Below are positions 56,320 to 58,762 of a stretch of DNA of 64,000 bases, piece by piece. The notes beneath the pieces were generated by a model. That model did no database searches. It saw only the letters and a list, made by a program, of their open reading frames with translations, and was not told the origin of the DNA. Numbering within the stretch: the stretch's first letter is position 1; the number at the start of each line of letters is the position of its first letter. The DNA comes from Escherichia coli. Its GTDB lineage: Bacteria > Pseudomonadota > Gammaproteobacteria > Enterobacterales > Enterobacteriaceae. The stretch lies in the NCBI RefSeq assembly GCF_044324875.1, contig NZ_CP172185.1. The stretch is one strand, 5' to 3'. A program made the translations under genes and the position numbers.

Positions 56320-56347
56320 AAAAAAGCGCCTTTAGGGCGCTTTTTTA
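56320..56347. terminator. Bidirectional intrinsic terminator after lysQ
   Basis: A-run, GCGCC-ttta-GGCGC hairpin, T-run. Confidence 0.6.
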
Positions 56348-56350
56348 CAT

Positions 56351-56426
56351 TGGTGGGTCGTGCAGGATTCGAACCTGCGACCAATTGATTAAAAGTCAAC
56401 TGCTCTACCAACTGAGCTAACGACCC
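56351..56426 (-). tRNA. lysQ: tRNA-Lys (UUU)
   Basis: Reverse complement is a 76-nt tRNA-Lys with CCA end; position 7 of the lysT operon. Confidence 0.95.
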
Positions 56427-56459
56427 CTTGCGGGATTATGCTGCTTTAATCATTCAGGA

Positions 56460-56535
56460 TGGTGGGTCGTGCAGGATTCGAACCTGCGACCAATTGATTA
56501 AAAGTCAACTGCTCTACCAACTGAGCTAACGACCC
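56460..56535 (-). tRNA. lysZ: tRNA-Lys (UUU)
   Basis: Identical 76-nt tRNA-Lys copy. Confidence 0.95.
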
Positions 56536-56583
56536 ATACGGGTGTTACCTGAAAGATTTCTACTCGGAACCAATCTTTAAAAT

Positions 56584-56600
56584 TGGTGGGTCGTGCAGGA
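56584..56600 (-). repeat. tRNA-Lys 3'-end fragment at start of a ~70-bp spacer repeat
   Basis: TGGTGGGTCGTGCAGGA then diverges; the spacer recurs at 57077-57150. Confidence 0.5.
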
Positions 56601-56681
56601 TGACTCGCTTCGCTCGCCCTACGGGCCGTTGCTGGCGCAACGTTATCCTTCACGCTTAACATCTGAGTTTGATGTTAAAAT

Positions 56682-56757
56682 TGGTGGGTCGTGCAGGATT
56701 CGAACCTGCGACCAATTGATTAAAAGTCAACTGCTCTACCAACTGAGCTAACGACCC
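56682..56757 (-). tRNA. lysY: tRNA-Lys (UUU)
   Basis: 76-nt tRNA-Lys. Confidence 0.95.
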
Positions 56758-56760
56758 GAG

Positions 56761-56836
56761 TGGTGGGTGATGACGGGATCGAACCGCCGACCCCCTCCTT
56801 GTAAGGGAGGTGCTCTCCCAGCTGAGCTAATCACCC
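56761..56836 (-). tRNA. valZ: tRNA-Val (UAC)
   Basis: Reverse complement GGGTGATTAGCTCAGCTGGGAGAGCACCTCCCTTACAAGGAGG...CCA. Confidence 0.95.
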
Positions 56837-56887
56837 GATACTGCGCTGGATACTACAAACTACTTCCACCGAACCCACCGTAATTAG

Positions 56888-56963
56888 TGGTGGGTCGTGC
56901 AGGATTCGAACCTGCGACCAATTGATTAAAAGTCAACTGCTCTACCAACTGAGCTAACGACCC
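56888..56963 (-). tRNA. lysW: tRNA-Lys (UUU)
   Basis: 76-nt tRNA-Lys. Confidence 0.95.
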
Positions 56964-56965
56964 GG

Positions 56966-57041
56966 TGGTGGGTGATGACGGGATCGAACCGCCGACCCCC
57001 TCCTTGTAAGGGAGGTGCTCTCCCAGCTGAGCTAATCACCC
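56966..57041 (-). tRNA. valT: tRNA-Val (UAC)
   Basis: 76-nt tRNA-Val. Confidence 0.95.
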
Positions 57042-57076
57042 GATACTACGCTGGATACTACAACTAACTAGGTTAG

Positions 57077-57093
57077 TGGTGGATCGTGCAGGA
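57077..57093 (-). repeat. Second tRNA 3'-end fragment with spacer repeat
   Basis: TGGTGGATCGTGCAGGA followed by the same ~55-nt spacer as at 56601. Confidence 0.5.
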
Positions 57094-57176
57094 TGACTCG
57101 ACTTCGTCTCGCCCTTCGGGCCGTTGCTGATGCAACGTTATCCTTCACGTTTTACTACCGCTTCCACCTTAGCGAT

Positions 57177-57252
57177 TGGTGGGTCGTGCAGGATTCGAAC
57201 CTGCGACCAATTGATTAAAAGTCAACTGCTCTACCAACTGAGCTAACGACCC
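57177..57252 (-). tRNA. lysT: tRNA-Lys (UUU)
   Basis: 76-nt tRNA-Lys, first gene of the operon. Confidence 0.95.
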
Positions 57253-57415: not shown

Positions 57416-58207
57416 TTACATCGCGTTCAGACGTTTTTGCGCCTGTTTAGCGCCATCAGTACCAGGATATTTACTGATAACCTGCTGGTATACGGCTTTC
57501 GCTTTTGCGGTGTCACCTTTGTCCTGCATGATGACGCCGACTTTAAACATCGCATCTGCAGCCTTTGGTGACTTCGGATAGTTTTTCACTACCGAAGCAA
57601 AATAGTACGCCGCATCATCTTTTTTACCCTTGTTGTAGTTTAACTGACCCAGCCAATAATTGGCGTTTGGCAGGTAAGTTGAATCAGGGTAATTTTTGAT
57701 GAAATTCTGAAATGCCACCATTGCGTCATCCTGGCGGGATTTATCCTGCACCAGCGCAATAGCTGCATTGTAATCCGTGTTTGCATCACCGCTTTTCACC
57801 GGCGCGCCAGCATTCGCAGTACCAGCATCAGCTGTCGGCGTCGTTGATGCCGCCGCACCGCTTTGATCGCCGCTGGTTGATTGCGCCGCTGCACCACCGC
57901 TGCTGAGGCTATCGATCTGCAACAGGATCTGCTTTTGCCGCTCCACGACCTGATTCAGTTGATACTGATTTTCCTGAATCTGACCACGCAGGGAATCAAT
58001 ATCGGATTGATTATCAGAGAGTTGTTGCTGGAGTTGGGTTAAAAGCTGGCTGTGAGCATTTGAAATACGCTCAAGTTGAGTGACGCGGTCTTCGACCGAG
58101 CCTGAGCCGACACTACTGATTGGTGCCTGAGCAAAAGCGGCCCAGGGGGCCGCTATACCAACCAGTAACGACAGACTCAATAGTTGATGTCTGAAGTTAC
58201 TGCTCAT
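57416..58207 (-). CDS. cpoB: Cell division coordinator CpoB (YbgF)
   Basis: 263-aa product with signal peptide, coiled coil and TPR region. Confidence 0.95.
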   Translation of the reverse strand: MSSNFRHQLLSLSLLVGIAAPWAAFAQAPISSVGSGSVEDRVTQLERISNAHSQLLTQLQQQLSDNQSDIDSLRGQIQENQYQLNQVVERQKQILLQIDSLSSGGAAAQSTSGDQSGAAASTTPTADAGTANAGAPVKSGDANTDYNAAIALVQDKSRQDDAMVAFQNFIKNYPDSTYLPNANYWLGQLNYNKGKKDDAAYYFASVVKNYPKSPKAADAMFKVGVIMQDKGDTAKAKAVYQQVISKYPGTDGAKQAQKRLNAM

Positions 58208-58216
58208 GCAATTCTC

Positions 58217-58762
<546 letters not shown>

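Follow-up and report, generated by a model that had tools for sequence, protein, structure and literature searches.

tRNA-linked repeats after lysT and lysY in an Escherichia coli tRNA operon: tRNA-matched tails, a predicted conserved fold and precise loss

Two spacers of the lysT operon in the 64,000-nt stretch of Escherichia coli DNA analysed here (the window) contain what appears to be the 3' end of a tRNA-Lys gene, which raises the question of whether these sequences are leftovers of tRNA duplication or elements in their own right. ARAGORN and Rfam placed seven tRNA genes on the minus strand at 56351-57252, in the order Lys-Val-Lys-Val-Lys-Lys-Lys (Table 1); a Rho-independent terminator has been described for the lysT operon (PMC4176162). 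The closest E. coli match to the operon was found in strain 1190, with 99.4% identity over 1 kb and the same architecture. Sub-threshold Rfam matches to YrlA and Plastid-ycf2 were cross-matches to the tRNA genes themselves.

The 18-mer ATCCTGCACGACCCACCA, read on the minus strand, constitutes the last 18 nt of tRNA-Lys and was present in seven copies in the window with no more than one mismatch. Five of these belong to the tRNA-Lys genes, one at the 3' end of each, while the remaining two, at 56584-56601 (18/18) and 57077-57094 (17/18), are additional, against a chance expectation of 0.00; the single mismatch is a minus-strand C to T change at 57083, where K-12 has C. The tRNA-Lys ends noted at 56584 and 57077 in a first-pass annotation, made from the sequence alone, were thus real, but comprise 18 nt and not 17. 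That annotation was also right in seeing a near-identical sequence beside each copy, which showed 90% identity over 48 nt and contains a GCCC-NNN-GGGC hairpin. The orientation it gave had to be reversed, as the operon lies on the minus strand: each element is located downstream of lysT or lysY, not just upstream of an intact tRNA-Lys, and in the RNA the common sequence comes first, with the tRNA-end copy forming its 3' tail. Both elements (TLR-1 and TLR-2, for tRNA-linked repeat, the family to which they are assigned below) start at the nucleotide right after the CCA of lysT or lysY, on the same strand. Comparison of filled and empty alleles gave a unit of 98-100 nt in place of the repeat of about 70 bp originally proposed, consisting of a 27-nt leader, a core of approximately 55 nt and the 18-nt tail, and flanked by an 18-nt direct repeat made up of the tRNA end and the tail. 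The boundary of TLR-1 was set by E. coli strain 136, which lacks the lysT element and in which the lysT-valT spacer consists of just the 35 nt found 3' of the tail in the window, one SNP apart.

Table 1. Features of the lysT operon and of its two tRNA-linked repeats, in window coordinates
Feature	Coordinates	Strand	Evidence or remark
lysT, tRNA-Lys(UUU), first gene of the operon	57177..57252	-	ARAGORN; Rfam tRNA 79.2 bits
TLR-1 (subtype A), 100-nt unit directly after lysT	57077..57176	-	Rfam RtT RF00391 60.0 bits
TLR-1 leader, 27 nt, variable, contains GGUGG	57150..57176	-	
TLR-1 closing-helix 5' strand CGUGAAGGAU, complementary to tail	57140..57149	-	Predicted fold; alignment pair counts
TLR-1 hairpin 1, CGUUGC-AUCA-GCAACG	57122..57137	-	Predicted fold; 99.5% of cells paired, nearly invariant, partly fixed by search pattern
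TLR-1 hairpin 2, GCCC-GAA-GGGC (the hairpin named in the first-pass annotation)	57111..57121	-	Predicted fold; invariant, hence no covariation evidence
TLR-1 hairpin 3, GAC-GAA-GUC	57100..57108	-	Predicted fold; two-sided changes at 3/3 pairs family-wide
TLR-1 tail, copy of last 18 nt of tRNA-Lys, 17/18	57077..57094	-	
Remainder of lysT-valT spacer past TLR-1, 35 nt	57042..57076	-	Homologous to sequence directly 3' of tRNA-Lys in TLR-less alleles
valT, tRNA-Val(UAC)	56966..57041	-	ARAGORN
lysW, tRNA-Lys(UUU)	56888..56963	-	ARAGORN
Empty TLR site, lysW-valZ spacer, 51 nt (K-12: 149 nt, +98 nt = one TLR)	56837..56887	-	
valZ, tRNA-Val(UAC)	56761..56836	-	ARAGORN
lysY, tRNA-Lys(UUU)	56682..56757	-	ARAGORN
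TLR-2 (subtype B), 98-nt unit directly after lysY	56584..56681	-	Rfam RtT 54.4 bits; predicted fold
TLR-2 leader hairpin	56655-56681	-	
TLR-2 closing-helix 5' strand	56645-56654	-	
TLR-2 hairpin 1	56627-56642	-	
TLR-2 hairpin 2	56616-56626	-	
TLR-2 hairpin 3	56607-56613	-	
TLR-2 tail, 18/18	56584-56601	-	
Remainder of lysY-lysZ spacer past TLR-2, 48 nt	56536..56583	-	K-12 comparison
lysZ, tRNA-Lys(UUU)	56460..56535	-	ARAGORN
Empty TLR site, lysZ-lysQ spacer, 33 nt (K-12: 132 nt, +99 nt = one TLR)	56427..56459	-	
lysQ, tRNA-Lys(UUU), last gene of the operon	56351..56426	-	ARAGORN
Operon terminator, AAAAAAGCGCC-CUAA-GGCGCUUUUUU	56320..56346	-	Read from sequence

The identity of the elements was established by comparison with Rfam and with K-12. 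Both matched the full-length RtT model (RF00391) with scores above its gathering score of 45, whereas the spacer alone reached 42.9 bits, because the 5' part of the model aligns to the upstream tRNA. Each is situated in a tRNA operon, immediately 3' of a stable-RNA gene of the same orientation, each ends in a tail copying the end of the upstream tRNA (18/18 in one, 17/18 in the other, within the 18-19 nt typical of the family), and the K-12 lysT operon carries near-identical orthologues at the same two positions. In the literature, the hallmark of tRNA-linked repeats is an 18-nt tail that reproduces exactly the 3' end of the stable RNA preceding it (Stenum et al. 2021, PMC8144298). This tail, together with the RtT scores, makes it virtually certain that both elements are TLRs, a family of enterobacterial tRNA and rRNA operons, and they are thus already known. 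As recounted in PMC8144298, the family was first seen at tyrT, as repeats of 178 bp (Egan & Landy 1978), and the catalogue of Rudd (1999) listed 22 copies at 10 K-12 loci, 19 of them in tRNA operons; by the same account, an early claim of a role for rtT RNA in the stringent response was withdrawn. The window features are typical members of this known family, catalogued both by Rudd (1999) and as RF00391. RefSeq carries no annotation at these sites in either strain 1190 or K-12; of 5426 complete E. coli genomes, 5290 nevertheless contain the core, with a median of 7 places per genome.

The placement of the repeats inside the lysT operon held up against other strains. K-12 has four TLRs in this operon, the two orthologous to the window copies and two more, and all K-12 TLRs share with those of the window a position directly 3' of a tRNA in the same operon, an identical 18-nt tail and the common core; apart from the number of copies and the one C-to-T change in a tail, nothing essential differs. 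The K-12 spacers following lysT, lysW, lysY and lysZ measure 135, 149, 146 and 132 nt, compared with 135, 51, 146 and 33 nt in the window, such that the two short spacers of the window equal those of K-12 minus exactly 98 and 99 nt, and the missing block extends from the nucleotide after the tRNA CCA to the end of the tail. Subtypes alternate along the operon, with A after lysT and lysZ and B after lysW and lysY. With four TLRs in K-12, two in the window and one in strain 136, every absence was nucleotide-exact. The lysW-valZ site was filled in no more than 4146 of 5426 E. coli genomes (at most 76%, some counts being derived from joined pieces), and the lysZ-lysQ site in 1996 of 5426 (37%). 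An element at the lysZ-lysQ position, followed by UCCUGAAU..., was also found in Citrobacter, Kluyvera and Klebsiella, and the empty site of the window is therefore most simply explained by a secondary, precise deletion between direct repeats. E. coli genomes differed in how many tRNA-Lys genes the operon holds, with counts of 1 to 5. Because tRNA end and tail constitute an 18-nt direct repeat, each unit is liable to be lost precisely; the repeated tRNA-TLR modules render the copy number of the operon unstable, and the TLRs of the lysT operon are dispensable in nature.

The distribution of the family beyond E. coli was assessed by scanning species-representative genomes with a degenerate core pattern, which fixes 18 core positions (on whose variability it says nothing) and which identified at least 120 loci. 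The pattern missed the tyrT copies of K-12 itself, whose hairpin 1 differs. The matches listed included 103 elements with a tRNA no more than 130 nt upstream and about 35 chance matches in GC-rich non-enteric genomes, with neither tRNA nor tail. Among those listed, hosts comprised Citrobacter, Enterobacter, Klebsiella, Salmonella, Kluyvera, Pluralibacter, Pantoea, Hafnia, Yersinia, Rahnella, Serratia, Erwinia, Brenneria and Gilliamella, together with metagenome-assembled genomes that were gammaproteobacterial (one) or unclassified proteobacterial, and the upstream tRNA was Lys(UUU), Arg(ACG), Arg(CCG), Pro(CGG), Pro(UGG) or Tyr(GUA). The tail was identical to the end of its own tRNA at 18/18 positions in 83 of the 103 listed elements, whereas its match to other tRNA types was about 12/18. 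Counting from the 3' end, exact identity extended over 18 or 19 nt in nearly all of these 103 elements (18 nt in 34 of the 36 listed Lys elements), indicating that the junction lies at one fixed position in the T-loop. Tails also followed species-specific tRNA variants, as seen for Lys elements in Hafnia (AUCCCGCACG...) and Cedecea (...ACGCCCCACCA) and for Arg elements in Yersinia, Rahnella and Hafnia (AUCUUCCUGGGUGCACCA). Mean pairwise identity was 0.85-0.98 for the 5' strand of the closing helix described below and 0.92-0.99 for the tail, compared with 0.65 for the leader and 0.55 for the downstream spacer; as that strand and the tail lie outside the search pattern, their conservation is independent of it. 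Between genera, identity of the core was 0.91 against 0.65 for the leader. A search of the spacer alone with the tRNA covariance model gave no match at E<=1, and ARAGORN called nothing there. Given the absence of such a match and the occurrence of the core behind several tRNA types, the core is, as judged from sequence, a family sequence attached to different tRNAs and not a decayed tRNA-Lys.

Each window element was predicted to fold into a four-way junction, in which the 10-nt strand CGUGAAGGAU pairs with nucleotides 1-10 of the tail to form a closing helix (CGUG.AGGAU/AUCCU.CACG) that encloses three hairpins: CGUUGC-NNNA-GCAACG, GCCC-GNA-GGGC and a short, variable third. Folding z-scores of the isolated elements were modest (-1.8 and -3.6). 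Across all 90 distinct elements, 89.5% of cells were paired, compared with 29-52% when partners were slid, and the covariation score was 0.181 versus 0.088 in shuffles (0/500), a score that reflects few independent events (about five tail types); the sequences of hairpins 1 and 2 hardly vary and were in part set by the pattern. Hairpin 3 displayed two-sided changes at all three of its pairs (GC, CG, AU, UA), with 98% of cells paired. In the closing helix, pair 7-70 was U-A in the Lys elements (29) and either G-C or A-U, with a single G-U, in the Arg elements (35), being paired in all 64 of the 64 short elements (class S, to which the 98-100 nt lysT units belong), while pair 11-66 changed from G-C to A-U in the Arg elements of Rahnella and Hafnia and in related Arg elements; G-C to A-U double changes were observed in the Arg elements of Yersinia, Rahnella and Hafnia. 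At least five tail types were each accompanied by a matched complementary strand, giving a predicted terminus resembling a tRNA acceptor. Compensatory changes support the predicted four-helix fold, among them those in the closing helix, where the 5' strand is matched to the tail in each tail type. In Arg elements, the helix is lengthened through GCA/UGC to 14 bp and ACCA-3' alone is predicted to remain unpaired, whereas in Lys elements the helix contains an A.G mismatch and leaves the 3' end, A(C/U)CCACCA (8 nt), unpaired, making these less tRNA-like. When the fold was predicted in context, the 5' acceptor strand of the tRNA paired equally well with the tail, and the tRNA's own 3' end with the closing strand, because tail and tRNA 3' end are identical in sequence. 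In principle, the modelled precursor could thus fold in two mutually exclusive ways, with the tRNA body closed either by its own end or by the tail.

In longer elements (class L: Pro, Tyr, and some Arg and Lys), the strand complementary to the tail is found 40-50 nt 5' of the core, as with GGGGAAGGAU, which lies opposite AUCCUUCCCC at tyrT, and this outer pairing agrees with the outer stem of the Rfam model. A search for class-L complements by 9-mer (for instance GGGAAGGAU for Tyr) separated poorly from controls with other tails (about 7.5/9), because all tails contain AUCCU, and column-wise counts were relied on instead. The tyrT repeat (RtT, with its RNA rttR; Bosl & Kersten 1991) and the lysT units have in common hairpin 1, the GCCC-GNA-GGGC core and the GAGU(A/C) junction; in both, the tail reproduces the end of the tRNA and is matched by an upstream complement, the two forming an outer helix. 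The tyrT repeat differs in the length of its units, which at 178 nt accommodate a further domain, located after the closing-helix strand and before the core, and in containing the tpr ORF, which starts at GGAUGAG; the lysT units read GGAUAAC and have no tpr-like ORF. Tpr, a protamine-like product of a 29-codon, ATG-initiated ORF, was accordingly rejected as a product of the window elements, in which the start is absent (GGATAAC versus GGATGAG at tyrT). For the Lys copies, the Rfam alignment takes its 5' half from the upstream tRNA; the local CGUGAAGGAU strand is the better-supported partner. Two other identities were rejected. An internal promoter was set aside as no promoter-like site was found in the elements, and a Rho-independent terminator as no minus-strand site was found inside them, matches being confined to the antisense strand and at chance level (2 versus 1.3 +/- 1.1 expected). 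Hairpin 1 was flagged as terminator-like on the antisense strand only.

The window TLRs are probably structured modules of the trailer, transcribed together with the tRNAs and ending in a 3' terminus that resembles that of a tRNA. Their position in the operon is such that they could have a bearing on precursor processing, as the first-pass annotation had suggested. The lysT operon is known to be expressed as one transcript of about 1100 nt, from which RNase P separates the tRNAs in the 3' to 5' direction, leaving trailers of up to 150 nt whose removal has been proposed to occur via RNase II and PNPase (PMC4176162). It may be envisaged that tail and closing helix provide the trailer with a tRNA-like 3' terminus, at which the usual tRNA 3'-end machinery would cut and trim and then stop, so that the spacer would become a discrete, probably short-lived by-product RNA instead of an unstructured trailer. 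As a whole this mechanism is proposed tentatively, and is held to be slightly less probable than its being mistaken. The annotated RttR RNA of K-12 (171 nt) has its 3' end exactly at the CCA of the tail, and the 3' end of RrB, a TLR-derived RNA linked to 5S rRNA, lies 3 nt beyond its repeat, for which recognition by RNase E was proposed (PMC8144298). Against the proposed mechanism, Northern probes directed at the lysT spacers revealed nothing but large precursors when RNase P was mutated, and in the wild type intermediates were 'surprisingly few', with no discrete spacer RNA reported (PMC4176162). The loss of individual TLRs by natural strains without known cost also counts against it. A literature search for small RNAs derived from the lysT spacers found nothing relevant. 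The bolder suggestion that TLRs are selected RNA modules which co-evolve with their host tRNA, and which time, buffer or report tRNA 3'-end maturation, is regarded as doubtful.

The main rival to a trailer module holds that these TLRs have no function, being neutral by-products of recombination events through which tandem tRNA arrays arise and are remodelled, passively transcribed and degraded with the trailer, with the identity of tail and tRNA maintained only by recurrent short-homology recombination or gene conversion. This would fit the precise absence of each TLR of the operon from some E. coli, with sites filled at frequencies of at most 76% and 37%, the variation of the operon between one and five tRNA-Lys genes, and the lack of any report of a stable spacer RNA (PMC4176162). 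However, core, closing-helix strand and tail have been kept from Escherichia to Gilliamella when the flanking sequences have not, the 5' strand complements whichever tRNA-specific tail is present, down to the G-C to A-U double changes, and hairpin 3 has stayed paired through many changes, where neutral relics should decay. Neutral recombination thus explains dispensability but not deep conservation and compensatory changes, and is considered rather unlikely to be the full account.

It is also conceivable that the TLRs act in trans as small RNAs, cut from the precursor to bind a protein or target RNAs, such that their level would report transcription of the tRNA operon. The family does include rttR, an annotated small RNA of K-12, as well as RrA, RrB and RrF, and its structure is conserved. 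RrA, RrB and RrF follow 5S rRNA in rrnA, rrnB and rrnD and fall within the TLR family as Stenum et al. (2021) define it. They resemble the lysT elements in that 18 bp of each repeat the end of the stable RNA before it; they are co-transcribed and processed, and the repeat has been proposed to be a processing signal. They differ in their location between two terminators, in their GGA motifs and in binding CsrA and Hfq, and none of them was recovered by the core search pattern. Binding of Hfq and CsrA has been shown for these three 5S-linked copies only, whereas the 19 TLRs of tRNA operons scored <0.01 in a prediction of CsrA binders (PMC8144298). The window TLRs, lying in a tRNA operon, do not share the location of that subgroup, no discrete RNA has been reported from these spacers (PMC4176162), and copies are dispensable in many strains; a trans-acting role is accordingly judged quite improbable. 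The spacer RNA 3'ETS-leuZ (Lalaouna et al. 2015, cited in PMC8144298) and other tRNA-spacer RNAs are comparable to the TLRs as by-products of tRNA-precursor processing that could act after excision. As a sponge for the small RNAs RyhB and RybB, 3'ETS-leuZ differs from the lysT TLRs, and it is not known to contain a copy of a tRNA end.

The arrangement of a tRNA, some 80 nt and then an 18-19 nt direct repeat starting from a fixed T-loop position resembles a target duplication, and the presence of the same core behind six tRNA species among the matches listed, with exact presence/absence alleles, might similarly be taken to indicate scars of a mobile or integrating element that targeted the tRNA T-loop and duplicated 18-19 bp to the 3' end in the manner of attL and attR. 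This appears very improbable, as the approximately 80 nt between the repeats contain no recombinase, ORF or other cargo, and a BLAST search of the core against 50,697 phage records returned only 7 weak matches, all to misfiled bacterial contigs or fragments. Furthermore, only 6 of 32156 places in E. coli were on plasmids, positions are orthologous across genera and hence old rather than recently mobile, a separate attP would be needed for each tRNA and for 5S rRNA, and deletion between 18-bp direct repeats explains the polymorphism. Finally, the literal reading of the first-pass annotation, that the elements are truncated tRNA-Lys pseudogenes left by duplication (its phrase, remnants of tRNA gene duplication or conversion, is not supported as it stands), has in its favour the 18 nt identical to the tRNA-Lys 3' end but is hardly credible, since tRNA homology ends abruptly at 18-19 nt in essentially all 103 listed elements, the adjoining sequence is the core common to Arg, Pro and Tyr TLRs, and neither the tRNA model nor ARAGORN detected a tRNA beyond that 3' fragment.

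The elements matter for annotation, as these spacers are unannotated in RefSeq even in K-12 and naive readers can be expected to go on rediscovering TLRs. With regard to the biology of the family, the options for TLR function are narrowed by a tail that tracks the local tRNA, by the covariation of closing helix and hairpin 3, and by the clean loss of copies. The existence in E. coli of natural, precise knock-out alleles of each TLR would make the 45-year-old question of their function directly testable.

Co-folding of lysY with its tRNA-linked repeat (TLR; window 56580-56757, minus strand) gave a minimum free energy structure in which the distal tail of the repeat closed the acceptor stem of the tRNA, with the tRNA's own 3' end paired to the TLR closing strand. 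As the tail is the same in sequence as the tRNA end, the alternative lysY-TLR folds are predicted to be near-isoenergetic. In the lysT-linked TLR, a C-to-T change was observed at 57083 (minus strand), the tail reading GAUCCACCA as opposed to GACCCACCA in both K-12 and the tRNA. This change lies within the unpaired 3' overhang and shows that TLR tails can drift from the tRNA sequence.

On the antisense (plus) strand, hairpin 1 of the TLR core followed by TTATCCTTCA was flagged as terminator-like at 56627-56642 and 57122-57137, a count of two being within chance expectation (1.3 ± 1.1). The match to the CpoB/ybgF RNA thermometer was full-length and very strong, and occupied the expected position 5' of cpoB. 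The YrlA match fell below threshold and was rejected, being most likely a cross-match of the tRNA-like domain of the model to tandem tRNA genes.

Rfam matches in and near the lysT operon, and TLR-like elements of uncultured gammaproteobacterial MAGs
Feature	Position	Strand	Detail
CpoB/ybgF intercistronic RNA thermometer (RF02782)	58178-58316	-	142 bits; gathering score 51
YrlA (Y RNA-like), sub-threshold, over lysZ-lysQ	56375-56515	-	44 bits; threshold 69
TLR-like element, L027	11967-12049	-	MAG
TLR-like element, L103	around 636	+	MAG

In E. coli IH5 (NZ_CP168949.1:4225175-4226302), cpoB is followed by a lone tRNA-Lys and then by yrdA, which stands in place of the remaining lysT operon and nadA. 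This order suggests that the chromosome was rearranged, with a breakpoint inside the tRNA-Lys array.

At the K-12 tyrT locus (NC_000913.3:1285900-1287700), one tail copy was found 3' of tyrT and several 3' of tyrV. A single unit is annotated, the first one 3' of tyrV, as the 171-nt rttR, which contains the 29-codon tpr ORF. The tyrT-type hairpin 1 (CGUUGCC-GCA-GGCAACG) differs from that of the Lys/Arg-type TLR, and was missed by the degenerate core pattern used to scan species-representative genomes.

In both MAG elements, hairpin 1 was fully compensated, CGCCGC/GCGGCG replacing CGUUGC/GCAACG, and the L027 tail repeated exactly the 3' terminus of the tRNA-Arg(CCG) that precedes it. A further family member was located downstream of tRNA-Pro(UGG) in Gilliamella (Orbales). 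The MAG elements indicate that the TLR family extends beyond Enterobacterales.
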